Shown here: piece after piece, positions 10,318 through 28,177 of the stretch | How positions within the stretch are numbered: position 1 is the stretch's first letter | How the letters are laid out: each line of letters starts with the position of its first letter | Sequence record: NC_070981.1 | Reading direction: 5' to 3' (one strand) | Origin: Escherichia phage EK010 | DNA: 64,000 bases | Position numbers and translations under genes: made by a program | The notes under the pieces: generated by a model | The model's database searches: none | What the model saw: only the letters and a program-made list of their open reading frames with translations | Told to the model about the DNA's origin: nothing

Positions 10318-10395
10318 GCACCCTTAGCTCAATTGGATTAGAGTAGCGACCTTCTAAGTCGTCGGTTACAGGTTCGAATCCTGTAGGGTGCACCA
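10318..10395 (+). tRNA. tRNA-Arg (anticodon UCU)
   Basis: Hand-folded cloverleaf: 7-bp acceptor stem GCACCCT/AGGGTGC, anticodon loop CUUCUAA, T-arm ACAGG-TTCGAAT-CCTGT, encoded CCA. Confidence 0.85.
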
Positions 10396-13586: not shown

Positions 13587-13611
13587 GGCTCTCTTAGGAG
13601 AGTCCTTTTTT
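13587..13611 (+). terminator. intrinsic terminator
   Basis: GGCTCTC/GAGAGTCC stem with one bulge, TTTTTT. Confidence 0.55.
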
Positions 13612-14169: not shown

Positions 14170-15387
14170 ATGTTCCCTGTAACACTTCAAAGCTGGAAAG
14201 AATCAGAAGACGTTGTAACTGTTTGGCCTCCTTGTTATGGTTTCCTGAAAGCAGGTTACTATCAGGGTGGTGATTATGATGAAGATGAAGATGGCTATCC
14301 TGACTACTACAACGCATATGACAGCAACTACGGCTGGAATATCCGCATTAAGGTGTGGAGTGAGGGTATGATGGTTCGTCAAGGCACTGCTGAAGAGAAC
14401 GTTCTTGAAAACATGATGCCCATGTCTGAAATCAAGTACATCTGGAACTCTGGTACACACCTTCCCGCTTATGGTGTAAAACGTTATGGTGATAAAGAGC
14501 CTATTACCACCCAGTATTTCCGCGAAGGGTTGGAGAATGGAGACCCTCGTCCTCCTTCTCACGTAGAAACATGGGCAGAAGAAAACAATCGCCCGGATGT
14601 TACTGATCGTGCTGTAATGGAAGCCTTTGAAGCATTCATGGATAAAGATCTTGACTCGTGTCTGGTATGGCATGAAGTAGGGTTCATGGGTGTTTGTACT
14701 GATGGTTGCCCTGCTGATCGCGCTCTGTTCTATCTAATGCTGAATCGTACATTCTATACAGATGATGAAAAATCTGCTGTGTATGAAATGTTGAACAAGA
14801 TGTATAAGAAAGGTTGGTCTCCTTTAGCCTCTCTTGCATTCAGCCGACTGATCAACCCTTCAGTGGATGTGTTCGGTAACGAACGTGTTGCTTTAACAGG
14901 GAATGATTACGATTCGTGTATCTTCCAAGCATCTCTGTATACAGTAGGTGTTGGTAGTACGATGATTGAGCCTCGCCAGACCAAATGGCGACAGTGTGAA
15001 TACACTGAAGGTGAGGGACACCTACGTGATGAAGACTTCTCCAGTCTGATCTACCGTAGTGAAGGTGTGCGTGATTGTCGAGTGAATAACTCGATGTTCT
15101 TACCAATCCTTCTTCCTCAGTATTGTAATCTACCAGAGGGTGAGCGTCCGGTCATCACAGAGAAGTCACTCTTGGTTGAATTTATCCGAGAAGTGGCTGA
15201 ATCTGAAACATCTTTTGCTAAAATTGTATTCGGTTATAACTGGAACAATGAAACAGCTTCAGCTCGAAGCTATAATATGTATAACATTATTAGTAACATG
15301 TCCAATGGACTAACCGATAGTGTTTATGCAGTACGTCCCTCAGAAGAGTGGGAAAACATTTTGGAAAAATTATTCTTCAATAAATAG
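14170..15387 (+). CDS. hypothetical protein (405 aa), first gene of ligase cluster
   Basis: Track ORF. Confidence 0.65.
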   Translation: MFPVTLQSWKESEDVVTVWPPCYGFLKAGYYQGGDYDEDEDGYPDYYNAYDSNYGWNIRIKVWSEGMMVRQGTAEENVLENMMPMSEIKYIWNSGTHLPAYGVKRYGDKEPITTQYFREGLENGDPRPPSHVETWAEENNRPDVTDRAVMEAFEAFMDKDLDSCLVWHEVGFMGVCTDGCPADRALFYLMLNRTFYTDDEKSAVYEMLNKMYKKGWSPLASLAFSRLINPSVDVFGNERVALTGNDYDSCIFQASLYTVGVGSTMIEPRQTKWRQCEYTEGEGHLRDEDFSSLIYRSEGVRDCRVNNSMFLPILLPQYCNLPEGERPVITEKSLLVEFIREVAESETSFAKIVFGYNWNNETASARSYNMYNIISNMSNGLTDSVYAVRPSEEWENILEKLFFNK

Positions 15388-15395
15388 AGGCGAAT

Positions 15396-16346
15396 ATGTC
15401 AATCTCCGCATCGATTGCTCCGGTAACACCAGCAGAGAACTTCGGTGAGTCAGTGTTCAAAGGAAGAGCTTGCTTTGGTACTTTTAACTGTATGCACATG
15501 TACTCTGTTACAGACATTAATGGTGAAAGTCTTAACCAAACAAGCCTTCGTGACAGAACTTCAGAAATTGAAGTTATTAACTTCTGGCCTCACAATTTTT
15601 ATGGCGTACCAGCTAAAGATATCGAAAATGCTTTAGTTGAAGCAACAGACATTTTTAATTCAATGTCTTGCTATAAAGATATGTTCTCTGTCACTTCGGT
15701 GAATTCAATTGCCGTGAACCTTCGAAACCATCCAGCAGACAAGGTGTTTACTGGACTAATGACCATCCGTAGCTATTTGGATGGTGATTTTAATGGAATG
15801 GAGTTCCTTCAGGAAGGCGTACAAGACAAGGAAGAGTTGCTTAAGCGACAACGAATCGGTTTAGCTCTACGCCTAGCTGGTTTAAGTCGTAACTTCTTTG
15901 GTCGCTGGTGTTATAGTAATGACGTAGACTCAACTGATGAGTCAGCAGCGACTTATTTTGATGGTGACATGAGTGCAATTGCATTTCTGCCACTAATTTG
16001 CACCACTGATGAATTTTCTGAAAACGTATGGGTTCAGAATGTGTTCGGTGTTGATGATAACCTAGATGGTTATGTACGAAACCATAATGATGGAGTTCTC
16101 CGTCGTATGGCACGTCGTCGTGACCAAGACCCTGACCATTACGAGAGTATGAGTGAATGGTTACGTCTCTGGTCAACTTGTGCAGGTCACAAGAGAGAAG
16201 TATTAGATCAGCGTATGGATAGAATTACTGTTCGTAGTTTTATTGAACGTCTGATGCAAGCAGTACCTTCCTCAATGACACCAGAAGAAGCTGGTGCCCG
16301 TGTTGTTTCCCTTTTTGATGAACTCGTGGAGTATTACAATGACTAA
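15396..16346 (+). CDS. hypothetical protein (316 aa)
   Basis: Track ORF. Confidence 0.65.
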   Translation: MSISASIAPVTPAENFGESVFKGRACFGTFNCMHMYSVTDINGESLNQTSLRDRTSEIEVINFWPHNFYGVPAKDIENALVEATDIFNSMSCYKDMFSVTSVNSIAVNLRNHPADKVFTGLMTIRSYLDGDFNGMEFLQEGVQDKEELLKRQRIGLALRLAGLSRNFFGRWCYSNDVDSTDESAATYFDGDMSAIAFLPLICTTDEFSENVWVQNVFGVDDNLDGYVRNHNDGVLRRMARRRDQDPDHYESMSEWLRLWSTCAGHKREVLDQRMDRITVRSFIERLMQAVPSSMTPEEAGARVVSLFDELVEYYND

Positions 16347-17145
16347 GCGCGCTTTCCTTATTGGCTCTGACCCTGAAATGTTTGTTCGTACTGCTTCCGG
16401 TATTATCACCTCTGTGGCTGGTAAGCTGGGCTGTTCTAAAGATAATAAAATTGATCTGGCTCCTGATGTTCGTCTTCAAGAAGACAACGTTCTGGCTGAG
16501 TTTGATATTAACCCACAGAAAGGGTTTGAAGCGTTTGATGATAATATTCAGCGTGGTATTGATCTGACTAACAAAGTTCTCAATGAACGTGGCATGGAGG
16601 CAGCACTTGGGATTAGCTCTCATGTGTTCACTTCAGAAGAACTTGAATCATTCCACCCGTCAGCTTTTGTATTTGGCTGTACTCCTGATTTCAATGCCTT
16701 CACTGGACAAAAGAACCCTTCACCAGTCGCAACCGATAAGGGTTTGCGTACTGCTGGGGGTCATGTGCACCTTGGTGTCTCCGGGACTTTAGAGATTACT
16801 CGACAAACTCAAATGATGTTGGGTGTGTTGTGTGATTACTTCCTGTCCTTGCCAGCTGTGATCATGGATAAAGACACTCGTCGTAAAGAGTTGTACGGAA
16901 AGGCTTCTGCCATTCGCTACAAAGATTACGGTATTGAATATCGTTCTCTTTCTAACTTCTGGATTGGTGATAAGTCCACTCGCAAGTTTGTTTATGAGCA
17001 AGTGGATAAGGTTGTTCAGGGTTGTGATATGGAAGTGTTGATGTCACTTCACTCTCGCCTTCCAATTGAAAAGCTTCATAACATCATCAACAGCAACGAT
17101 GTTAAAGAAGCGGATAAATTCTCCTCTAAACTCCAGATTGTATAA
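16339..17145 (+). CDS. amidoligase-like protein (GSDPE ... GGHVHLG motifs)
   Basis: Internal ATG of track ORF 16294-17145; HxH motif and pattern similar to 17778 gene. Confidence 0.45.
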   Translation: MTKRAFLIGSDPEMFVRTASGIITSVAGKLGCSKDNKIDLAPDVRLQEDNVLAEFDINPQKGFEAFDDNIQRGIDLTNKVLNERGMEAALGISSHVFTSEELESFHPSAFVFGCTPDFNAFTGQKNPSPVATDKGLRTAGGHVHLGVSGTLEITRQTQMMLGVLCDYFLSLPAVIMDKDTRRKELYGKASAIRYKDYGIEYRSLSNFWIGDKSTRKFVYEQVDKVVQGCDMEVLMSLHSRLPIEKLHNIINSNDVKEADKFSSKLQIV

Positions 17146-17154
17146 GGTGATATT

Positions 17155-17781
17155 ATGAGCTTGTTAAGAGATTTTCAACACTATTATTGTGGAACATGGA
17201 TTGCTCAGCGATCACCTGATGGTAAAAACCTCCCTCTATATGTGCTTGATGTTCGTCAGCAAGGTAACTTTGATATCGACGACTACTCACACGACGCTGA
17301 AATGTCTTTAGTGTTTGAGGCGGAACGCTGGACTAAAAACTCTGAAGGTCAGTTTGAACGTCAGATTGTTAGTAATATCCCAGTGTTTGATCACAGCCTC
17401 ATTCTAGAGTCTCCAGATGTAGGATACCTTCAGCATGGTAATAACATGGTGAGCTGGACCCATATCAACCCTGTTCGTCAGCGAGCTAAAGGCTTGATGG
17501 GGAATAAACTTCGTGGTGCTGCACCTTCTCTCGGACGTTCGATTCCGGGTGATTTGGTGTACAACTTGTTTAATCCAGAGTTTGAAGGGTTGGTTACTCG
17601 TTTCATCTATATCAACCCTGTCGATGGAAAAGTGTATTACAAAGGGGCTTACGTTGGAAACGTGCTTCTTGAAGCTGGCTATGGCGACAACGGTCGCCAA
17701 TCTTTAAACCTTCTGGAGAAGTTCAAGCATATTTCTTCAGACCTGTCATCATATAATGTAGAGTTGGTGGAATCATTATGA
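17155..17781 (+). CDS. hypothetical protein (208 aa)
   Basis: Track ORF. Confidence 0.6.
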   Translation: MSLLRDFQHYYCGTWIAQRSPDGKNLPLYVLDVRQQGNFDIDDYSHDAEMSLVFEAERWTKNSEGQFERQIVSNIPVFDHSLILESPDVGYLQHGNNMVSWTHINPVRQRAKGLMGNKLRGAAPSLGRSIPGDLVYNLFNPEFEGLVTRFIYINPVDGKVYYKGAYVGNVLLEAGYGDNGRQSLNLLEKFKHISSDLSSYNVELVESL

Positions 17782-18878
17782 CAACCGTAGCACAAGTTTT
17801 TGGATACCGTAACCCTCGCTTATCTGAACCACATCCAAGTATTGCTTTTCAGTGTGGTGTAGGTATTGAGTTAGAAGTCGAAGGTACAATTGACATTGAC
17901 GCTGATATGTGGGTTTGTACTGAAGATGGCTCTCTTCGTGATGGTTGTGAATTAGTGTGTGCACGACCTTACAACGGTGAAGAATTACTTCGTGCTATTA
18001 ACAATCTGAGTGAAGCAGTACAGGACTCTGGAGCCGAGGGAACTTGGCGCTGCTCCACTCACGTTCATATGGATATGCGGGACGCTGATAGTAATATCCT
18101 TAAGAAAGTTATTCTTGGGTGGACGTTCTATGAAAAGATGATGTTCAAATGTTCTGGATATCATCGTTACCGTAGTAACTTCTGCCCAGCTTTTGCTGTT
18201 GTTCAAGCTCAAGTTATGAATGCTTCATCAGCGTTCAACCGAGATGGGGAAGATTTCTTCCGTACTCTTGTTAATAGCTGGGACAAGTATACCTCCCTTA
18301 ACCTGTTGCCTCTATCTCAGTTTGGTTCTGTTGAGTTTCGTATTTCAGAGCCGAAGTGGAAAAAGAGTCAGCTGCTAAATCTGGTCAATCGCTTCTTGGT
18401 TCTCAAGAAACTGGCTGTTGAATATGCAGATTTAGATAATGAAGCTTATGTTGAGAAGTTGAATGAGCTGCGCTTCGCTCCTATGATTCAACATCTACCT
18501 CTAGACTATACTCCAAGAGATAGCGATCTCACTGAAGGGTATCGTCTTGCCCGTGATATTCTGTTCTGTCGTGAGCAATCTGTAACTTTGGTTGGTCGTG
18601 TTCGTGTGCAACAGACTGGCCCTGATGGTGAAGTCCTTATCAACTTACGTGATATGAATGACTTCTATGGTTTCTTGGGATATGTGCGCGGTAATGCCAA
18701 CACTGTCTATGAAGAGATCATGACCTACTACACTCCTCAGATTGAAAGCACTCGAATCGCAACGGTTCGTGAAATTCGTCACATGTTTGCATTGATGCGT
18801 GAATCAGGTAGCAGTGATAATAACATCACTGATTACATTCCAGACCATCTGGAAATGCAATTAGAACGACTGCTGTAA
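17778..18878 (+). CDS. putative amidoligase (GS/GCS-like, Amidoligase_2-type)
   Basis: GVGIELEVEG and STHVHMD motifs; sits next to a GATase and an AIG2-like gene. Confidence 0.55.
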   Translation: MTTVAQVFGYRNPRLSEPHPSIAFQCGVGIELEVEGTIDIDADMWVCTEDGSLRDGCELVCARPYNGEELLRAINNLSEAVQDSGAEGTWRCSTHVHMDMRDADSNILKKVILGWTFYEKMMFKCSGYHRYRSNFCPAFAVVQAQVMNASSAFNRDGEDFFRTLVNSWDKYTSLNLLPLSQFGSVEFRISEPKWKKSQLLNLVNRFLVLKKLAVEYADLDNEAYVEKLNELRFAPMIQHLPLDYTPRDSDLTEGYRLARDILFCREQSVTLVGRVRVQQTGPDGEVLINLRDMNDFYGFLGYVRGNANTVYEEIMTYYTPQIESTRIATVREIRHMFALMRESGSSDNNITDYIPDHLEMQLERLL

Positions 18879-18955
18879 CACAATGGGCGCTCTGATAAAG
18901 GGCGCATTTAAAGGTTAATTAGATGAAAGGGTTTACCCTTCAGGTGGATTAGAAA

Positions 18956-20989
18956 ATTTGTGGTATCGTATTAGCTGGCGGCAACATGACCTCAACAGAT
19001 TTGGATATTTTCAACCAACTTCTGTATGCTGGTGTTTTCCGGGGACAGCACTCAACTGGTGTGTTTGGTCAGCGTAAAGGTGAAAAGCAAGTCTTCTCTT
19101 ATAAAGAAGCTCTTCCTTCTTATGCTTTTATGCTCCAGACAGAATATACAAATATTACCAAAGGGCTTACGAACTACGTGGTTCCTCCTTCGTGGATTGT
19201 TGGTCACAGCCGACATGCCACTCGTGGGGCTGTCAATGCTCGAAATGCTCACCCATTTACTCACGGGGATATTACTCTGGTTCATAATGGAACCCTGTTA
19301 GATCAAGATCTCCTTCCTGACAGTAAGCGTTTCGAAGTTGATAGTGAAAACATCTGCCACTCAATTAATACCATTGGAGCAGCAGAGACTATCCAAAAAC
19401 TGGATGGTGCATTCACTTTAATCTGGCATGACGCCAAAGATAACACGCTTCACATTATCCGTAATGATGAGCGTCCTTTCCACCTAGCCCGTTGTGGTTT
19501 AGATTGGTTTGGGGCTTCTGAAGAAGCTATGCTTATGTGGATTTTAGAGCGTTCTAAATCCCACAAGAACCGTATCAATGACCACTTCGAGTGTAAAGTG
19601 GGAACTGAGTATATCTTTGATGTGTCTAACAGTCGTATGACTCTGGTTCAAGAGGTGGAGCACAAGCTTCCGGTTTTTACGGTAACGAGTCGCTGGGGCG
19701 GCTATTACTCGAACTCCTCTCTATATCAGAACCAACAGACAAACAAATCAAGCAGCAGCACAAGCGACATTTACGGAAACAAAGACGACAAGCCCGGCGT
19801 GACAAGCGGAGACATTCGTCGTCGTAAAGCGATTGAAGACCAGAACAAACTGGCTGCCGATCGTGGTCTTCCTTATCGTCGTGATGGTCGTGTGGATATT
19901 ATTCCTCACGAGTTCCATGCTTATAACAACACAGATCGTGGTAAGATGGTTGGTTACATCTACGACGATAAAGCCCAAGAGTATGTCGAAGGGGATGTTC
20001 ACAACGTAGCCAAAGATGAATATCTTAAGGCTCTTGAAAACCCAAAGGTAGTATATCGCGGGACGATTGCTTGTATCTCCGAAGTGGACAGTATGATTCG
20101 CCTCGTACTAACTTCAGGGCTGTTTGTTGATGCTACAGATAAGGAGCCTCAAAGCACTACTGCTGATTTTGATGATGATATCCCTTTTGATGCAGAGGAC
20201 TCCTTCATCACTAAAAATGGTGTAGAAGTCACTCGTAAGTTCTGGGAATCTCACTCTCATGGTGATTGTGGTGGTTGTGATAAGCACATTGACTGGAAAG
20301 ATGCTCGTAAGGCTGTGTTTGCTTATCAAGCATACTGGCATCCAGAATGCTTCGAAGCGTTATCTAAAACCTCTGAAGATGAAGAAGATGTGCCTTTGGG
20401 TGTATGTGCTATCTGTGGTGAAGTCAAGACTGATTTCGAGTTTGACAACGAAATGAGTAAACTTCGTGGTGAAGACGTTTGTTATATCTGCTCCAAAGAA
20501 ATCAAAGATAAAGTAAAGAATGTTACTCTATCTGAAGGTTATATTTGGACTAAAGCAGTAGACACAACCAACCCACGTCGTCCTGAAGTAGCTGTTCGTG
20601 TTGATGAACGTATGCTTAGCCGTATGATCGTAATGGTTAGCTCAGCAAAACGTTCAGGGGATATCACACTTGCAGATGTTCCTAATTCGTATTTGGAAAA
20701 ACGTGGTGGTGATACTTATGCCATCTCTGTTTATGGTCCAAAGAATGCCCCAAAGGAGGTACCCGCTGAGAAAGCGGAGACATTTCCAGAAAAGTCAACC
20801 TCTCTCCGAAAAACAGTTGTCAGTTACGATGGACAACGAACAGCTGAGTTTACAAAAGCCCTCTGGACTTCAATTGGGTTTTGTGCAGTCTGTTATAAAC
20901 AAATTCCGTGGCGTGATGCAGAAACTTGCTCACTAAACAAAGAAAATAGAGTGATCTGTAATTCAGATTACTGTAAAGGTAAACACTAA
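18956..20989 (+). CDS. class-II (Ntn) glutamine amidotransferase with Cys-rich C-terminal extension
   Basis: CGIVLAGG...LQ-like RGQHSTGV...HSRHATRG...NAHPF motifs; Cys nucleophile lies 9 codons upstream of the first ATG (18986), implying ATT start at ~18956 after AGGTGG SD. Confidence 0.8.
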   Translation: MCGIVLAGGNMTSTDLDIFNQLLYAGVFRGQHSTGVFGQRKGEKQVFSYKEALPSYAFMLQTEYTNITKGLTNYVVPPSWIVGHSRHATRGAVNARNAHPFTHGDITLVHNGTLLDQDLLPDSKRFEVDSENICHSINTIGAAETIQKLDGAFTLIWHDAKDNTLHIIRNDERPFHLARCGLDWFGASEEAMLMWILERSKSHKNRINDHFECKVGTEYIFDVSNSRMTLVQEVEHKLPVFTVTSRWGGYYSNSSLYQNQQTNKSSSSTSDIYGNKDDKPGVTSGDIRRRKAIEDQNKLAADRGLPYRRDGRVDIIPHEFHAYNNTDRGKMVGYIYDDKAQEYVEGDVHNVAKDEYLKALENPKVVYRGTIACISEVDSMIRLVLTSGLFVDATDKEPQSTTADFDDDIPFDAEDSFITKNGVEVTRKFWESHSHGDCGGCDKHIDWKDARKAVFAYQAYWHPECFEALSKTSEDEEDVPLGVCAICGEVKTDFEFDNEMSKLRGEDVCYICSKEIKDKVKNVTLSEGYIWTKAVDTTNPRRPEVAVRVDERMLSRMIVMVSSAKRSGDITLADVPNSYLEKRGGDTYAISVYGPKNAPKEVPAEKAETFPEKSTSLRKTVVSYDGQRTAEFTKALWTSIGFCAVCYKQIPWRDAETCSLNKENRVICNSDYCKGKH

Positions 20990-21000
20990 GAGGTATAGTT

Positions 21001-21234
21001 ATGGAAGTTCGTAAACTGATGTTGGATAACGTGGTAACTACCCGTCGTATTCCGATGACAAGCACAGGATGTGATAACCTCCGAGCAATTCAGAAGTGGA
21101 TGCAAGAAGGTATTGGGAAGCTGGTTGACTCTCCAGTAGAAATCCCTTTTCCAACCGTCATTAATAACGTGTTGGCTGACTATGTTAAAATGAAGGGGAT
21201 TAAAGTTGAGCCTCATGTCAAGCAAGGGAGCTAA
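21001..21234 (+). CDS. hypothetical protein (77 aa)
   Basis: Track ORF. Confidence 0.5.
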   Translation: MEVRKLMLDNVVTTRRIPMTSTGCDNLRAIQKWMQEGIGKLVDSPVEIPFPTVINNVLADYVKMKGIKVEPHVKQGS

Positions 21235-21436
21235 GCCTCACCTGACAATGCTGGAGTATCAACAACTCCGACTTCAACAACTGGTAACGGAGCAGCGAAA
21301 GCTGTATCCGTTTGCTTTTAACCTAATTGATTCACCAAGCGATGACCAAGAAGACGAGATGTTCGCCAAGTATTGGGAAATCGAAGTTAAAATTCAATCC
21401 TGTCGTAACGAAATTCTTAAACTAAAAGGTATCTAA
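21206..21436 (+). CDS. hypothetical protein (76 aa)
   Basis: Track ORF; start uncertain. Confidence 0.45.
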   Translation: MSLMSSKGAKPHLTMLEYQQLRLQQLVTEQRKLYPFAFNLIDSPSDDQEDEMFAKYWEIEVKIQSCRNEILKLKGI

Positions 21437-21438
21437 AA

Positions 21439-22674
21439 ATGACTACTCGTATCCGTGTTCTTCCGTATGGCCCTTCTGATTCTGTTAACGCTCTGGTAAC
21501 TGCCATTAACGATACTATCCGTGATGAACGTATCAACGCTAACATAATGGGTCTTCTTTCAGAGAACAGTCGCTGGCGTTCTCGTGAGGGTGATGTGGTT
21601 GTGAACTACGGGAACCGTCGCTATCCTGAATCCTTCTTTGGTTCTGCAACTGTCCTTAACCGTACCGCAGCCTTACATATGGCAGCGAACAAACGTCGTG
21701 CTTTCAGCGTGATGGACCAAGCAGGTGTTAAAACTGTTGAGTATACAGATGTTCAAGAGATTGCTCAGGAGTGGTCAAACTCTGGCAACATTGTGTATGA
21801 ACGTCATGAACTGACTGGTCACTCTGGTTCGGGTATCGTTGTTGTTGAGCCTCGTGATTCAATTGGTCAAGCTGAACTGTACACCAAAGGTATTCAAGGT
21901 CCACGTCGTGAATGGCGTGTCCATGTGTTCAAAGGTGTTATCACCTATGTTCAGAAGAAGATTCGTCGTAACGGCTATCGTGAAGACCCTAACTATCGTG
22001 AAGATGTTCGTAACCATCACACTGGTTGGGTTTACTCAAGTTCCTTCACAGACGCTCCAAATGATGCATCTCTGATCAACGCAGTGAAAGCTGTTGAATC
22101 AATGGGTCTGGATTTCGGTGCAGTTGATATCATCACCAAAGGTCAAGAAGCGTGGGTACTGGAAGTTAATACAGCACCGGGCCTGACTGGTACAACTCTG
22201 GATACCTACCGTCATAACATTCTTGAGTTTGTTAAAGCTCAAAACCCTCTCTATACCCCTCAGTATAAAGTGGTTTACCAGACTCCGATTGAAGATGGAG
22301 ACGGTGAGTTGGTGGATGATATTGAAAGTGCTGATGATGAAAACTTTGCACTGGAAGGACAAGTAGCACAGCCGATTGATTCAGTTGATGTGGTTCCTGA
22401 AGAAATGCAACTGGAAGGTCAGATGAATACTCAAACTATTCGTAATGCACCTACTGGCTACACTTTGTCTCGTGGCTACTGGATTGCAAATATCCGTCAT
22501 GTCCACAACAACCTGCAACCGAATGCAATGTCTGCCAATGTCATCCTGTTCTGTGATGGTCGTAACTTCTACCGCAGTGGTTGGAACGTTCCGGTCAATC
22601 CAGTCCAGATTCATAACCCTCGCAAGTTAGAGTCTGTCAATGTTGAAGGTAGCGAAGTAGCAGTAACTCTGTAA
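21439..22674 (+). CDS. ATP-grasp family ligase
   Basis: GHSGSGIVVV, EWRVHVF, WVLEVNTAPGLTG motifs. Confidence 0.7.
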   Translation: MTTRIRVLPYGPSDSVNALVTAINDTIRDERINANIMGLLSENSRWRSREGDVVVNYGNRRYPESFFGSATVLNRTAALHMAANKRRAFSVMDQAGVKTVEYTDVQEIAQEWSNSGNIVYERHELTGHSGSGIVVVEPRDSIGQAELYTKGIQGPRREWRVHVFKGVITYVQKKIRRNGYREDPNYREDVRNHHTGWVYSSSFTDAPNDASLINAVKAVESMGLDFGAVDIITKGQEAWVLEVNTAPGLTGTTLDTYRHNILEFVKAQNPLYTPQYKVVYQTPIEDGDGELVDDIESADDENFALEGQVAQPIDSVDVVPEEMQLEGQMNTQTIRNAPTGYTLSRGYWIANIRHVHNNLQPNAMSANVILFCDGRNFYRSGWNVPVNPVQIHNPRKLESVNVEGSEVAVTL

Positions 22675-22705
22675 TTAAATTAAATTAAACAAAAAGGAAT
22701 TTGTA

Positions 22706-22948
22706 ATGTTGTCTATCGAAGATTTGATCAGCCGTGGAATGACCGAAGAAAAAGAGCCTCTGATTGTAGGCTCTCGTAAAGCTATCAACCAACTCTGTGA
22801 AGAGTTCGGAATCACAAATAAGAGAATGATTGGTAATCAGTTCTCTGCAATCATCACCTTCCTCAAACGAGGTGATAAATATTCAATGGAATGTGCTGAG
22901 CGTATCATCGCAATTGCACAAGCAGATAAGGGAGTAACAAATCTATGA
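22706..22948 (+). CDS. hypothetical protein (80 aa)
   Basis: Track ORF. Confidence 0.5.
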   Translation: MLSIEDLISRGMTEEKEPLIVGSRKAINQLCEEFGITNKRMIGNQFSAIITFLKRGDKYSMECAERIIAIAQADKGVTNL

Positions 22949-23130
22949 ATAAATACACAATCATGTTTCGTACAATGTCAGCAGAAGGAAATATTCAATC
23001 TCTGGACATTCAAGCAGATCGCTTTGAATCACTTGGAACAAGTGTTAACTTCTTCCGAGGTACAGAGCTAGTGGGTACATTCCAATCTGATGTGTTGACT
23101 GGTGTGATCAAACACTTCGAAGTAGAATAA
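22945..23130 (+). CDS. hypothetical protein (61 aa)
   Basis: Track ORF. Confidence 0.45.
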   Translation: MNKYTIMFRTMSAEGNIQSLDIQADRFESLGTSVNFFRGTELVGTFQSDVLTGVIKHFEVE

Positions 23131-23189
23131 TTTGCTTTAGCCTCTTCGAAAGAGGGGGCTAGTTCGAATTTAGCTTACAAAGGAGTTTT

Positions 23190-23726
23190 ATGGAATGGAG
23201 AGAACTTCCCGGATATGAGGGACAGTATTCAATCTCTGATAAAGGGGATATCCGTAGTAATTACCGATGGTATCTTAACCCTAAGACACTAACACGCCAT
23301 AAGAAAGATCGTGAATTGATTATGACACCCAATGTTGGTTCAGCGGGTTATGCTCGAATCAAATTAAGTGATCAGATTTTTCATCCGTATCACAGATTGG
23401 TAGCTATTGTTTGGGTAAGCAATCCAGAAAACAAACCTTTCATCAACCATAAAGATGGAAACAAACTGAACAACAACCCTTCTAATCTAGAATGGGTTAC
23501 TTGTCAGGAAAACAATATACATGCATATCAGACAGGTTTAAACTCTGGTATGCTAAGAGCAGAAACCCTTTCACATGTGTGGAATTTTATATCTCCCGAA
23601 GGGGTTCAAACCGAAATCACTAACCTTTGTAAATATTGTAGAGAGAATGATTTATCTAAGTCCTCTATGATAGCAGTACACAAAGGAACTCAATATCAAC
23701 ATAAGGGTTGGAAAAGAAATGAGTAA
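23190..23726 (+). CDS. HNH homing endonuclease (NUMOD4-like N-terminus)
   Basis: WRELPGYEGQYSISDKGDIRS and NHKDGNKLNNNPSNLEWVTCQENNIHA motifs. Confidence 0.8.
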   Translation: MEWRELPGYEGQYSISDKGDIRSNYRWYLNPKTLTRHKKDRELIMTPNVGSAGYARIKLSDQIFHPYHRLVAIVWVSNPENKPFINHKDGNKLNNNPSNLEWVTCQENNIHAYQTGLNSGMLRAETLSHVWNFISPEGVQTEITNLCKYCRENDLSKSSMIAVHKGTQYQHKGWKRNE

Positions 23727-24153
23727 TGAGAAAGTTTTAGTAGCAACTTACGGCAGCTTGAGAAAAGGTCAACACAACCACGCTATCAATGCTCGTGCAG
23801 GTGGTGTGTCTATCGGTGAAGGGTGGACAGTAAACAACTGTAACCTGTATCAGTATTGCACAGCATACTTCCCAAGTGTATCTCTGGTGCATAACAGCAA
23901 TGGTAAGCCTGTTCGTGTAGAGGTCTTTGAGACAACCCAAGCTGGTCTGGAAGGCCCATATGACGGTCTGGAAGGTCACCGTGGCAATGATAACCCATAC
24001 ACCTTTTACAAACGTACATTGATCCCAGTATTATTGGACAGTGGTGAAACTGTGGAAGCGTGGATTTACCATATTGACGAAGAACAAGATGTTCTTGTTG
24101 AATCTGGTGACTGGACAGCATATCTGGCAGGTGAGAAGGATGACAGTAACTGA
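23719..24153 (+). CDS. gamma-glutamyl cyclotransferase (AIG2/GGCT)-like protein
   Basis: N-terminal VATYGSLRKG motif. Confidence 0.65.
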   Translation: MSNEKVLVATYGSLRKGQHNHAINARAGGVSIGEGWTVNNCNLYQYCTAYFPSVSLVHNSNGKPVRVEVFETTQAGLEGPYDGLEGHRGNDNPYTFYKRTLIPVLLDSGETVEAWIYHIDEEQDVLVESGDWTAYLAGEKDDSN

Positions 24154-24346
24154 CAGGCAGAAGTTAAGAAAGCTGGAATCTGACTACTTGAAGATGCGGT
24201 GGAAAATTAATCGCTATGAAAAGTTTGTCAGTATGCTCACACCTGATAAGCACTCTGAAGAATTTATTCACAGAACAAAGCAAACCTTGCAGGGTTTTAG
24301 AAACTTGCAAGATGATGTGTGGGAAGAAATACGATCGTTTTACTAA
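24140..24346 (+). CDS. hypothetical small protein
   Basis: Internal ATG of track ORF 24041-24346 with GAGAAGG SD. Confidence 0.4.
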   Translation: MTVTDRQKLRKLESDYLKMRWKINRYEKFVSMLTPDKHSEEFIHRTKQTLQGFRNLQDDVWEEIRSFY

Positions 24347-24381: not shown

Positions 24382-26172
24382 ATGTCAAAGATCATTTTGG
24401 GAGACACAGGCTGTAAAGAGTGTATCTCTCATGGTCGTGATAAGACCCGCAATCACATGATTCTCTTCCGAAATGAAGAGTCCGGTGAGGAGTGGGGTTC
24501 ATGTAACAGATGTGGTGCGTATGAAATCTTCGAGAAAGGAACGACGCCCACTCCTAATGAAAAGAAAGAGCTGTCCCCTGAAGAACTCCGAGAAGTCTTA
24601 GACGATTGCTTAGAGCTTCCTCAGGGAGAGTTGACTCGTCGCTTAATTCCTAAAGCTGTATCTGAACGTTATGGATGCCGTATCGGTTTAAGCCAAACAG
24701 ATGGTCAAACTCCTGACAGCTACTTCTTCCCTCGTGAACGTGATGGGAACATTGTTGGATATGAAGTAAAACTTCTAGACAGCAAGAAGTTCTATTATGT
24801 AGGTAATGTGAAAGAAGCCGACTTGTTTGGTATGGCTCAAGCACAACGTGGTGACGTATACAACAAGAAACTCTTCATCTTTGAAGATCCTCTCTCTTGT
24901 ATGTCTGGGTTCCACGTACTTACCGCGTTTACAAACGCAACTAACATCAAACCTGCTTGCGTCTCTCTTCCGTTCGGTGCAGGTTCAATCTCTTCTGTAT
25001 TATCAAGAAACCGTGATTTTATTAATGGTTTCGAGGAGATTGTACTCTGCATGGACAATGATGATGCAGGTGAGATTGCTTTAACTAAGGGTCGTTCTCT
25101 GTACCCGCATGTTAAGTTTGCAAGGATTCCAAAAGGTACGTTCACTTATAACGGACAAGAAAAGGAAATCAAAGATGCAAACGACATGTTACTTGCAGGG
25201 AGAGGTCAAGAGCTTTTCAACAATCTGAAATATTCAGCTAAGCGGGAATCTCCTGCTGGAGCTGTTACAGTTTTTGATTGCCTCGAAGATGCTCTGAAGA
25301 AAGCGGAATGGGGTATCCCTTATCCGTGGAAAACTCTCAATGACATGACCTTTGGTATTCGTTGGGGAGAGATGGTTGCAATCGGTGGTGGTGTTGGTTC
25401 AGGTAAAACCTTAATCGCACATGAACTGGTAGCATGGCTTTGCCTTGAGCACGGTTTTAATGGTGGTGGCTTCTTCTTGGAAGAGAAGGTAGGCATGTCT
25501 GTTAAGAACATTGCAGGTAAATCCGCATCCATCCCATTCCACCGACCAGATGTTGAGTATGAAGAAAGTCAGCTACGAGATGAAGCACTTCGATACGCTG
25601 ATAAGTTTTTCTTGTACGACAACTTTGGGCAGAATGAGTGGGAAGACATTAAGCAGTGTATTCGCTTTTGGGTAGTTGAGAATCAGTGTAAATTTATCAT
25701 TCTTGATAACATCACTGCATTGGTATCTCACTTAACTCCGTCTGAGGTAAATACAGAAATCAGCAAGATTGCTTCAGAGCTTGCTGGTATGTGTAAGGAA
25801 CTGGACTTCACTGCTTTTGTGTTATCTCACTTGAATGCTCCGGCGGGCGGTGCCCCTCACGAAGAAGGTGGTCAGGTTAAAGAAGTACAGTTTACTGGCT
25901 CACGTTCATTAATGCGCTGGTGTCAATGTATTATCGGTTTCGAACGTAATAAACAAGCGGATGGGTTAGGTAAAAACTTGTCAATCATACGTCTGCTCAA
26001 AGAACGTAACTACGGACAGACAGGGGTTTGCTATACCAAATACATTAACGAAACAGGTCGTCTTGTGGAACGAGAAGATCATGAAGTTGATGAAGATAAT
26101 CCGTTTACAGTCACCAATGGAGAAGATGCAGCTTCCTTACTTTCACAAGAAGGGGAGGCACGTCCATGGTAA
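24382..26172 (+). CDS. DNA primase/helicase (T7 gp4-like)
   Basis: N-terminal Cys4 zinc ribbon, Walker [10 protein letters not shown], Walker B FIILDNIT. Confidence 0.85.
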
Positions 26173-26716: not shown

Positions 26717-28177
26717 ATGATTAAGATTCCATTATCTGAATTGAACCTTCAAGAAGGAGAAGCCCTCAGTGTAGGGCTTGACCTGATTCGTAATTTGATC
26801 AGAGATAACGTAGTCCCTGATGGTATCTATCCTGTTATTGCAGGTGGTGCTATCCGTGATACGTTCTTCCAAAATCGAACTCCGAATGATGTTGATATCT
26901 TCCTAGTTCAAGGAGGGCTTCGTTGGAACACTCGCCAGGAAAATAGCCCTGCTAACGTAGGTAATGCTGCACTGTTCCTTGACAACTTCTTATCTTGGAC
27001 AGAAAGTAAGGGGCTTCAGGTTACATCTCGCCTAGTTCAGCCTGTTAACGGGACAACCTATGCTGAAGCGCTTTTCACTTTCCAAGAGATTCTGGAAATT
27101 GAGATTGATCAAGTGAAGATTCAGATGATGATTAATCTCCCTCTGGATATGGATACTTTGAGTCGTCGCTTTCCTATGATCTGTCAAGGGTTTATGACTC
27201 TTGGTGATTTGTATGTGTCAAACGAAGGTTTGTTTGCAATGTCATACACTCGTGACATTCCTGTGGTATCTAGTCGTGAAATGAAGTATGTTCACAAGAA
27301 GTGGCCTGAAGCAACTGTTGCAGTTTATAGCAGTTCTACCGAATATATGCACCTTGCAATGGGAGCTTTCGGTGAGCCAGAAGTTCACCTGATTAGTGAT
27401 TTAGTTGGACCTATGGCTGGTGTAAATTTATATCAGAATCAGCGTCGTCATTATACCCTGAAGATGATGGAAACTATATTAAACATTCCTCAGGAAAGGG
27501 GTCGTAGCTATCTGGACGAGGAAGTTAACCTACAGACAGAATGGTCTAGTGGATTAACCACTATAGGTGCTGAAGCAATTACGCAGCCTTGGACTCCGGG
27601 AACTAACAGACGAGATCTTCAAGCTTTTAATGAAGAAACTTCTCGAACTGTTCGAGGAGGTGTTGTAGGGTATAACGTACAACCTCATGAAAGACCTCGT
27701 GACACTTTTACTGGCAGTTTTGGTAGTGCACACTCTTCTGGAATGGATACTCGTACATGGCATGTCCAAGGAGGAACTGCTCGTCCTATTCCTTCTCCGT
27801 CAATGGATGATTTGCAGCGTTCTCGTCGTTCATGGGAAACAGTAAGCTCTGTTGTTCAGGGTCTACGTGCTAGTGATGTAGAACGTGTAGAAGTTGGCGA
27901 TGTGCTGGAAGATGGATTGCTGGCGATAGCGGCTCGTGAAGCTGCTCGTACTGGCTTTGCATCTTTAGCTAATGATGCTAACGAAGCTCCTCGCCCTCGC
28001 CGTCGTAGCGGTTTAGCTCACTCTAACACTGAACTAGGTTCAGAACTCCGATCTGCTGCTCGTGAGCTATCTGGTGAGCTTCACAACAACCTAGCAGGTG
28101 TTACACTATCTCGTGAAACAGCTCGTAATATGATTAATAATTTGGCATCATCTGTACAAGGAAACAGAAACTCATGA
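26717..28177 (+). CDS. Pol-beta superfamily nucleotidyltransferase (tRNA-NT/poly(A) polymerase head-like) with R/S-rich C-terminal tail
   Basis: IAGGAIRDTFF...DVDIF matches GGxVRD...DxD head motif. Confidence 0.5.
   Translation: MIKIPLSELNLQEGEALSVGLDLIRNLIRDNVVPDGIYPVIAGGAIRDTFFQNRTPNDVDIFLVQGGLRWNTRQENSPANVGNAALFLDNFLSWTESKGLQVTSRLVQPVNGTTYAEALFTFQEILEIEIDQVKIQMMINLPLDMDTLSRRFPMICQGFMTLGDLYVSNEGLFAMSYTRDIPVVSSREMKYVHKKWPEATVAVYSSSTEYMHLAMGAFGEPEVHLISDLVGPMAGVNLYQNQRRHYTLKMMETILNIPQERGRSYLDEEVNLQTEWSSGLTTIGAEAITQPWTPGTNRRDLQAFNEETSRTVRGGVVGYNVQPHERPRDTFTGSFGSAHSSGMDTRTWHVQGGTARPIPSPSMDDLQRSRRSWETVSSVVQGLRASDVERVEVGDVLEDGLLAIAAREAARTGFASLANDANEAPRPRRRSGLAHSNTELGSELRSAARELSGELHNNLAGVTLSRETARNMINNLASSVQGNRNS

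Follow-up and report, generated by a model that had tools for sequence, protein, structure and literature searches.

A conserved phage cassette of three predicted carboxylate-amine ligases, a glutamine amidotransferase and a gamma-glutamyl cyclotransferase in Escherichia phage EK010

Positions 14170–24346 of the 64,000-nucleotide stretch of Escherichia phage EK010 analysed here (record NC_070981.1; the whole stretch is called the window) are filled by 14 open reading frames (ORFs), all on the + strand, among them genes for three predicted ATP-dependent carboxylate-amine ligases, a glutamine amidotransferase (GAT) and a gamma-glutamyl cyclotransferase (GGCT). Together they probably make up a single pathway of ligation, amidation and trimming. 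For the fuller reading, in which one co-inherited and co-oriented cassette is expressed with the replication genes and acts in the cytoplasm of the infected cell to build a chain on a protein-borne group, we put the chances a little below even. The cassette is already known as a predicted system and the finding is not new; the phiEco32 gp77–gp88 type of system was reportedly described in 2009 by Iyer, Abhiman, Burroughs and Aravind (Mol Biosyst). The statement in the first-pass annotation, that computational work had predicted for this combination of enzymes the synthesis of a peptide-like metabolite or the ligation and removal of peptide tags, is borne out in that Pfam PF14395 carries the family name ‘Phage phiEco32-like COOH.NH2 ligase-type 2’ and the window's phage is a relative of phiEco32. 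The enzymes, with one further core component, are as follows.

16339–17145, + strand: COOH-NH2 ligase type 2, 268 residues, a predicted carboxylate-amine ligase of glutamine-synthetase/GCS fold (Pfam PF14395; PHROG 3815).
17155–17781, + strand: g04, 208 residues, a core component that does not look like an enzyme (SH3/Tudor-like beta-barrels, R-x3-K-G loop).
17778–18878, + strand: Amidoligase_2, 366 residues, a second predicted carboxylate-amine ligase of glutamine-synthetase fold (Pfam PF12224; PHROG 7469).
18956–20989, + strand: class-II (N-terminal nucleophile, Ntn) GAT, 677 residues, with a predicted AUU start (GATase_6).
21439–22674, + strand: RimK-like ATP-grasp ligase, 411 residues (PHROG 2599, NCBIfam, alignment with RimK structures).
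23719–24153, + strand: gamma-glutamyl(amine) cyclotransferase, AIG2-like (GGCT), 144 residues (Pfam GGACT; PHROG 2520).

These genes keep constant company. When IMG/VR was scanned with two Amidoligase_2 peptide motifs alone, 37 viral loci from very different phages were recovered, and their six-frame ORFs were searched with profiles built in the analysis; the addition of GenBank loci brought the set to 45. The GAT was present in all 37 loci and the COOH-NH2 ligase and ATP-grasp protein in 36 each, the two misses falling at contig ends, while the cassette genes were co-oriented throughout and mostly kept their order. GGCT was found in 22 of the 37 loci, and in 30 of 45 after iteration and inclusion of the GenBank loci. 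A search of 7,993 ORFs placed g04 in 43 of 45 loci, in a constant position directly upstream of Amidoligase_2. The clustering exceeds chance; its invariant core comprises four enzymes and g04, and GGCT, the DUF7195 protein and the g01/g02 family are frequent accessories. That the genes are instead independent ‘morons’ lying side by side is scarcely credible: an unrelated gp79 orthologue and an HNH endonuclease are interspersed among them and the accessories are not universal, but the four enzymes and g04 occur together in essentially every locus, on the same strand and mostly in the same order, with proteins only 25–40% identical, and this synteny contradicts such independence.

Gordonclarkvirinae, Grimontviridae, LUZ24-like phages and one Privateer-like contig share a single gene order. 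Annotated genomes that carry the block include the Pseudomonas LUZ24/PaP3-like phages, Pseudoalteromonas RIO-1, Salmonella SeKF_80, Aeromonas BUCT695 and Vibrio Vp_R1, usually with an adjoining primase-helicase gene, and a tblastn search with the amidoligase returned 290 phage records. At least four phage families are represented, with Escherichia, Salmonella, Proteus, Aeromonas, Vibrio, Pseudomonas, Pseudoalteromonas, Sinorhizobium and marine bacteria as hosts; known hosts are all Gram-negative. The cassette takes up 6–10 kb of genomes of 45–90 kb and, being kept in at least four families, must pay its way. Its presence has been pointed out in the literature for phiEco32, 7-11, LUZ24, PaP3, tf, PA11/TC6, CW02, RIO-1, HMO-2011-type and OM43 phages.

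By nucleotide identity of the 10-kb stretch, the window's phage is a Gordonclarkvirinae coliphage (phiEco32-like, C3 morphotype). Identity is 99.9% with Escherichia phage E20-1, 95–97% with Suseptimavirus-type phages (SU7, IME267, BASEL Bas86 and Bas87), 89% with ECBP2 and Bas88, and ∼74% with EP335 and KBNP1711. The orthologues in phiEco32 run from phi32_88 to phi32_76, in a block directly upstream of genes for a primase-helicase, a polymerase exonuclease subunit, a CCA-type nucleotidyltransferase and a dCTP deaminase; the window's proteins are 42–84% identical to phi32_76 to phi32_89, gp79 and gp81 included, with most core genes at 70–84%. Two glutamine-synthetase-fold ligases, a class-II GAT, an ATP-grasp protein and an AIG2 protein thus co-occur, co-oriented, in the replication/early region, as in the phiEco32 gp77–gp88 system, which has the same genes in the same order; nothing essential differs, and the window alone has an HNH homing endonuclease before the GGCT gene. 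Consistent with expression at that stage, the ‘early gene products’ identified by mass spectrometry in phage SU10 include the ATP-grasp protein, the GAT, a YtfP-like GGCT and a hypothetical protein of 23 kDa (PMC4281155). A scan for hydrophobic segments found none in any cassette protein, and the chemistry is therefore expected to be cytoplasmic.

The catalytic signatures of three ATP-dependent carboxylate-amine ligases, of a Cys1 GAT and usually of a GGCT appear intact from the translations. The two amidoligase-like proteins called at 16339 and 17778 in the first-pass annotation stand: the former matched Pfam COOH-NH2_lig at 2.2e-8 (34.1 bits, cut-off 25) and the latter Amidoligase_2 at 3e-8 (34.3 bits, cut-off 22). 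The HVH motifs noticed there are GGHVHLG in the COOH-NH2 ligase and STHVHMD in Amidoligase_2, each inside its family's invariant block. In the COOH-NH2 ligase E, H, R and D residues are invariant over seven lineages, and the invariant motifs of Amidoligase_2 are G-E-x-E-x-E, SLR, R-x-S-T-H-x-H and E-x-R; scores above the cut-offs, together with conserved Glu, His and Arg at predicted metal- and phosphate-binding positions, argue for membership of both proteins in these families. In some relatives the ligases are longer, the RIO-1 COOH-NH2 ligase having an N-terminal extension of ∼170 residues (locus L004, 5041–5640) and Grimontviridae Amidoligase_2 100–180 low-complexity N-terminal residues (loci L005 and L007), both unrelated to g04. 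The idea that g04 corresponds to the fused extension of the RIO-1 ligase was dropped, since hhalign gave no match and RIO-1_12 is the g04 homologue instead.

The 677-residue Ntn amidotransferase at 18956 was equally well founded. It matched GATase_6 at 2.6e-14 (53.8 bits, cut-off 27), as well as GATase_7, and on alignment to the GlmS glutaminase domain the positions of Cys1, HSRHATRG (R), HNG (N-G) and DSE (D) agree. A TGT (Cys) codon at 18959 comes right after the ATT at 18956, and an in-frame TAG lies two codons upstream, at 18950; a GAT of 677 residues with a catalytic Cys1 therefore needs an ATT (AUU) start at 18956, and we infer that translation begins there. In 45 of 45 related loci the codon right after the start specifies Cys, with ATG as the start in 35 and ATT in 10, and the phiEco32 and Bas86 annotations give the same 677-residue reading, which likewise requires AUU. 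A marine locus (L039) gained its ATT start independently. The RefSeq model of SU7 (NC_070980; locus L002, 18807–20810) begins the GAT at an internal downstream ATG and so leaves out the catalytic Cys.

The leader of this gene (18905–18955, + strand) is conserved and contains a small hairpin, a Shine-Dalgarno sequence and an upstream ORF. The Shine-Dalgarno AGGTGG at 18942 is 8 nt upstream of the ATT, and the upstream ORF, nine codons from ATG 18923 to TAG 18952 (MKGFTLQVD), stops 3 nt before it, a layout that suggests termination-reinitiation or IF3-sensitive, low-level translation of the GAT. Bas86, SU7, phiEco32 and Aeromonas phage BUCT695 have almost the same ∼50-nt leader, although the BUCT695 protein is only ∼39% identical. 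A known RNA element was considered and rejected, with no Rfam match and an unexceptional fold energy (z = −0.24). Just upstream, between Amidoligase_2 and the leader, 18879–18905 holds a short GC hairpin followed by ATTT; its stem reads GGGCGC...GGCGC in the window and GGTGCC...GGGCAC in phiEco32, a difference that looks compensatory, and the hairpin may act within the operon as a weak terminator or as a site of processing.

The GATase domain of the protein covers approximately residues 1–225 and is followed by a conserved beta-rich domain with a zinc finger and then by two more CxxC zinc-ribbon-like modules. The Cys-rich C-terminal pairs reported from the first inspection are thus present, and the first of them, C437/C440, does not vary over eight lineages. 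The GAT showed no synthase domain, its C-terminal 450 residues consisting of the beta-rich domain and the CxxC zinc fingers; the ammonia acceptor could be a separate ligase, or the GAT could be a gamma-glutamyl amidase like EgtC. It is not GlmS: the SIS domain is absent and the score is 40 bits against a cut-off of 381. Because no SIS domain is present and scores are far under the equivalog cut-offs, the labels ‘L-glutamine-D-fructose-6-phosphate aminotransferase’, ‘aminotransferase’ and ‘GlmS’ carried by relatives are over-annotations that the scores do not support.

The ATP-grasp assignment at 21439 is carried by PHROG 2599 (1e-169), by NCBIfam matches to MptN and RimK, and by the Mg/ATP motif D...E-x-N (AVDIITKGQEAWVLEVNTAPGL), which aligns with the RimK structures 5zct and 4iwx. 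Amidoligase, GAT and GGCT placements all exceed curated cut-offs; the ATP-grasp placement alone falls under the Pfam RimK cut-off and is held by the other evidence just given, so that the protein is best read, from its sequence, as a superfamily member that is RimK-like yet outside the RimK family by curated criteria. A C-terminal extension, residues 336–402, also exists as a stand-alone PHROG. The product name ‘ribosomal protein S6 glutaminyl transferase’ found in databases is an over-annotation and not justified. The AIG2/GGCT-like protein expected at 23719 matched Pfam GGACT at 1.1e-15 (58.7 bits, cut-off 22.8); its translation has YGSLRKG at residues 11–17 and LEG at residues 84–86, and by analogy the conserved glutamate of LEG would be the catalytic Glu.

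On the chemistry of these families, each of the three ligases would use ATP to convert a carboxylate to an acyl-phosphate and couple it to an amine, giving up to three amide bonds. Jointly they may make a short chain that is joined by amide bonds, a gamma-glutamyl link among them, and is rich in glutamate or glutamine. The GAT would supply glutamine-derived ammonia to turn a carboxylate into a carboxamide, or would hydrolyse a gamma-glutamyl amide as EgtC-type enzymes do. GGCT could then take off a gamma-glutamyl unit as 5-oxoproline, so that the product is trimmed or released.

We tentatively favour, at somewhat less than even chances, assembly of this chain on a protein-borne group rather than as a free metabolite, with g04 as the prime candidate for carrier, adaptor or substrate. 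A protein-borne acceptor is favoured because the only universal non-catalytic parts are binding-type modules, namely the g04 barrels and the beta-domain and zinc finger of the GAT; because g04 has an invariant Arg...Lys-Gly (R-x3-K-G) in a flexible loop, residues 104–128; and because the ligases nearest to the ATP-grasp protein lengthen protein or cofactor tails at a terminal glutamate. RimK, MptN and CofF attach L-glutamate to a terminal carboxylate. RimK/RimABK (which carries out poly-alpha-L-glutamylation of S6), MptN and CofF are the best-scoring characterised relatives of the ATP-grasp protein and have the Mg/ATP motif in common with it; unlike them, the phage protein bears a further domain at its C-terminus, and it scores far under their cut-offs, and an S6-like acceptor is not evident.

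A number of points weigh against this account of the cassette as a whole. The ATP-grasp protein reaches only 19.7 bits against Pfam RimK (cut-off 21), and in NCBIfam 36.7 bits against MptN (2.4e-9; cut-off 350) and 29.2 bits against rimK_fam (5.6e-7; cut-off 143). Searches of PDB chains with both glutamine-synthetase-fold ligase profiles gave no meaningful match, and because no PDB relative is detectable by sequence the substrate classes of the two ligases cannot be read. Across nine loci no conserved acidic, Gln or Gly tail was seen at the C-terminus of any small ORF; the idea of a small tag or carrier that keeps a Glu or Gln at its C-terminus, for which g07, g08, g11, PaP3 ORF44 and RIO-1_17 were the candidates, was accordingly rejected, as the ends of these proteins are not conserved. 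GGCT went undetected in 15 of 45 loci, mainly marine, and trimming or release by GGCT is therefore not obligatory. Binding modules also occur in small-molecule pathways with carrier proteins. Finally, full-text searches of the literature returned hypotheses and no biochemical or genetic test of the cassette, with substrate, product or phenotype reported for no member, in keeping with the earlier remark that product and target in phages are biochemically undefined.

A more specific form of the protein-borne reading, in which g04 is a dedicated carrier or acceptor and the cassette a template-free peptide assembly line on it, is quite unlikely. One glutamine-synthetase-fold ligase would gamma-glutamylate the invariant loop lysine of R-x3-K-G and the RimK-like ATP-grasp enzyme would extend the free alpha-carboxylate; the second glutamine-synthetase-fold ligase, with ammonia from the GAT, would cap a carboxylate as an amide; and GGCT, where present, would free a pyroglutamyl-peptide amide and regenerate the lysine, or erase the mark. 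If true, this would be new phage-encoded chemistry, either a carrier-templated small peptide or a reversible protein modification in host takeover.

Two characterised arrangements resemble parts of this scheme. Members of the cyclotransferase family split epsilon-(gamma-glutamyl)-lysine. Pupylation (the ligase PafA, the deamidase Dop and the tag Pup) is alike in having two paralogous glutamine-synthetase-fold enzymes and in a possible gamma-glutamyl-lysine isopeptide with an eraser, whereas the phage ligases are not PafA/Dop by Pfam, no Pup-like protein was found and there is no proteasome or AAA partner. In butirosin synthesis, where gamma-glutamyl serves as a protecting group, the ATP-grasp enzyme BtrJ gamma-glutamylates a carrier-bound amine and BtrG, of AIG2/GGCT fold, takes the glutamyl group off again; in the amino-group carrier-protein pathway, LysX, an ATP-grasp enzyme of the RimK family, loads its substrate on the small zinc-finger carrier LysW. 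The phage cassette similarly pairs a RimK-like ATP-grasp protein, GGCT, zinc-finger modules and a small invariant non-enzyme, but neither an acyl carrier protein nor a LysW-like EDWGE-type tail was found, the phage zinc fingers are fused to the GAT, and g04 is SH3/Tudor-like.

The strongest rival to a protein-borne chain is a free gamma-glutamyl metabolite, and we regard it as doubtful. The product would be a soluble gamma-glutamyl compound (a glutathione-like thiol peptide, a gamma-glutamyl-polyamine or another peptide-like molecule), or the genes would form a nitrogen/glutamate auxiliary module, with GGCT and a GAT-like hydrolase recycling the glutamyl group. Each enzyme family of the cassette is represented in gamma-glutamyl small-molecule metabolism: GCS-type ligases and the ATP-grasp enzyme GshB make glutathione, which GGCT/ChaC degrade, the class-II GAT-like EgtC and Dug3 are gamma-glutamyl amidases, and PuuA-type ligases use polyamines. 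Three ligases and an amidotransferase do look like a short biosynthetic pathway, the GAT has a weak NCBIfam match to EgtC, and a glutaredoxin lies just downstream of the RIO-1 cassette. Against this, the hosts already produce glutathione and gamma-glutamyl-polyamines, the universal partners are binding-type modules and not transporters or tailoring enzymes, and the ATP-grasp protein is nearer to RimK/MptN than to GshB, which does not appear in its match lists. Nitrogen or amino-acid auxiliary metabolism has been proposed in print for a LUZ24-like phage that promoted growth on nitrate or ammonium, an effect its authors credited to cassette genes (PMC10945688) but which was not tied to any gene.

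Next in rank, and unlikely, is modification of peptidoglycan precursors, in which an altered stem peptide (a gamma-glutamyl link, amidation or a terminal dipeptide) would exclude superinfecting phages. Amidation of stem peptides by amidotransferases is established. Hardies et al., in 2013, are said to have described a RIO-1-like ‘peptidoglycan modification cassette’. GGCT, however, needs an L-gamma-glutamyl group with a free alpha-amine, which the stem peptide does not have. The ATP-grasp protein has weaker matches to D-Ala-D-Ala ligase (Ddl; 6e-5 and 4e-4) and the hosts, as noted, are Gram-negative throughout, but its scores are higher against alpha-L-glutamate ligases than against Ddl, and by Pfam and the hydrophobic-segment scan the cassette encodes neither a Mur-type ligase, a racemase or a flippase nor any protein of the membrane or periplasm. 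Wall turnover would also have little time in a lytic infection whose latent period is short. The name ‘peptidoglycan modification cassette’ has been applied to the genes of phiEco32, 7-11, LUZ24, PaP3, tf, CW02 and RIO-1 (PMC5498523), and cell-wall modification against superinfection has been proposed elsewhere too (PMC10580990); support for the idea is limited to family resemblance, and the name asserts a putative function. The RIO-1-/LUZ24-like cassettes so named (Duhaime et al., 2017; PMC5498523) have the same five enzyme families beside a primase-helicase gene and a g04 homologue too; unlike the window's cassette, they measure ∼6 kb, have no g01/g02 pair and encode a shorter amidotransferase with one zinc finger, and in RIO-1 the gene order is different.

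Very improbable, finally, is modification of nucleic acid, in which an amino-acid-derived group on phage DNA, or on tRNA or other RNA, would explain the restriction-modification (RM) resistance of Gordonclarkvirinae. The known thymidine hypermodification pathways rely on other enzyme families. The BASEL-2 study reports this phage group as unexpectedly RM-resistant by a mechanism that is not known (PMC11990801), and because the window has 12 EcoRI, 26 EcoRV and 5 EcoKI sites, absence of sites cannot explain the resistance. In addition, the cassette always lies within the replication module, usually adjoining the primase-helicase gene, and includes zinc fingers and a small protein that is possibly ribbon-helix-helix-like. 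Yet DNA of phage tf, a cassette carrier from a phage group other than the window's, is cut by RsaI, HpaI, EcoRV, SmaI and HaeIII, and the window avoids several 6-bp palindromes and CCWGG, as restriction-exposed DNA would: in its 64 kb GAGCTC, CTGCAG, AGTACT, TGGCCA, CCCGGG and GTCGAC each occur 0 times, GATC 129 times against 282 expected and CCWGG three times. A paper on the Kuravirus phage myPSH1131 contained no restriction digests. Moreover, the annotation of 43 kb of SU7 lists ThyX and a dCTP deaminase but no hydroxymethylase, TET/JBP, DpdA, Mom, base kinase or glycosyltransferase. Given digestible tf DNA, avoided palindromes and, on the SU7 annotation, no base-precursor enzymes, DNA hypermodification was set aside as unlikely to be the main account of the cassette.

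In the same replication region, 26717–28177 encodes a 486-residue protein with a GGAIRD...DVD head motif of the class-II CCA-adding/poly(A)-polymerase type and no Pfam match at E < 0.05, situated between the polymerase exonuclease subunit and the dCTP deaminase. The BASEL-2 authors speculate that the CCA-type/dCTP deaminase pair hints at DNA modification such as dU (PMC11990801). The window's single tRNA gene is a tRNA-Arg(TCT) at 10318–10395.

Seventeen years after the prediction, the literature searched names no product of the cassette, and sequence searches reveal for neither PF14395 nor PF12224 a member that is characterised or structurally solved, so that one defined substrate would annotate whole families. 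Phages of this group were described in BASEL-2 as ‘only poorly studied’, and the Bas86–93 isolates, which over the cluster have 95–96% identity to the window, plate on Escherichia coli K-12 (PMC11990801); with the group newly genetically accessible, the question is now directly testable. What is added here is modest: g04 as part of the core, the list of accessories, the g01/g02 family, and the predicted AUU start with its conserved leader. For experimenters this yields a parts list of four core enzymes and g04, with gp79 and the HNH endonuclease as bystanders and an inferred AUU start for the GAT.

The remaining features of the region are as follows.

13587–13604, + strand: terminator-like hairpin (consensus scan, pattern match; SU7 has an annotated terminator at the equivalent place).
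14170–15387, + strand: g01, 405 residues, predicted paralogue A of a cassette-specific family (phiEco32 gp88 orthologue).
15396–16346, + strand: g02, 316 residues, predicted paralogue B of the g01 family (phiEco32 gp87 orthologue; iterated profile).
21001–21234, + strand: g07, 77 residues, small basic DUF7195 protein (Pfam PF23825, 3.3e-19).
21206–21436, + strand: g08, ∼73–76 residues, phiEco32 gp81 (PHROG 13464).
22706–22948, + strand: phiEco32 gp79 orthologue (76% identity to phi32_79).
22945–23130, + strand: g11, 61 residues, lineage-specific small protein, phiEco32 gp78.
23176–23726, + strand: mobile insertion with an HNH homing endonuclease gene, 23190–23726 (Pfam NUMOD4 and HNH_3).
24140–24346, + strand: small ORF, phiEco32 gp76 orthologue, the final gene ahead of the primase-helicase gene (24382–26172).

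The first-pass description of consecutive same-strand genes interleaved with five proteins of unknown function is right as to strand and interleaving and wrong as to number, there being nine other ORFs, the HNH endonuclease and the gp79 orthologue included. Of these g04 is treated above; its homologues include RIO-1_12 and PaP3 ORF47, and searches of g04 and g01 by sequence against PDB chains gave no meaningful match. An iterated profile from g02 picked up g01, the two proteins encoded upstream in Grimontviridae and one copy each in Vp_R1 and in loci L022, L036 and L044, and all its matches lie directly upstream of the COOH-NH2 ligase. A direct profile comparison of g01 with g02 was negative, the relationship emerging only when profiles were iterated with the Grimontviridae proteins included; the two are predicted, from positional specificity and Foldseek and without a direct pairwise score, to be paralogues of one family. 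Their confident model, with no solved structural relative, appears to represent a new fold confined to the cassette.

The small g07 lies directly after the GAT in 26 of 45 loci and its sequence pattern is possibly ribbon-helix-helix-like. In 11 of 45 loci g08 was found, limited to Gordonclarkvirinae and close relatives, and no convincing relatives of g11 were seen beyond Gordonclarkvirinae, g11-like proteins not aligning across families. In phiEco32, gp79 is a middle protein that inhibits the sigma-70 RNA polymerase holoenzyme and stimulates the phage sigma factor, and 7-11-type phages have the cassette without gp79 (PMC8948821); its orthologue here is embedded in the cluster and is not part of the ligase chemistry. 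Close relatives annotate this orthologue, which sits between the ATP-grasp and GGCT genes, merely as ‘hypothetical protein’. The HNH endonuclease is likewise a bystander unrelated to the cassette: the insertion at 23176–23726 is absent at that site from Bas86 and phiEco32, while in Bas86 and SU7 the COOH-NH2 ligase gene has another HNH gene at its 5′ end (locus L001, 8200–8686), where GenBank annotates the ligase as a two-piece join.

The promoter consensus of the phiEco32 sigma factor gp36, TAATGTATA, was rejected as a landmark, its matches in the cluster being no commoner than by chance and exact matches numbering 0 in 13.5–24.4 kb, and sigma-70 promoter and terminator scans of the cluster gave counts at or under shuffle expectation. 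The hairpin at 13587–13604 probably closes the preceding transcription unit, with the cassette operon beginning downstream of it.

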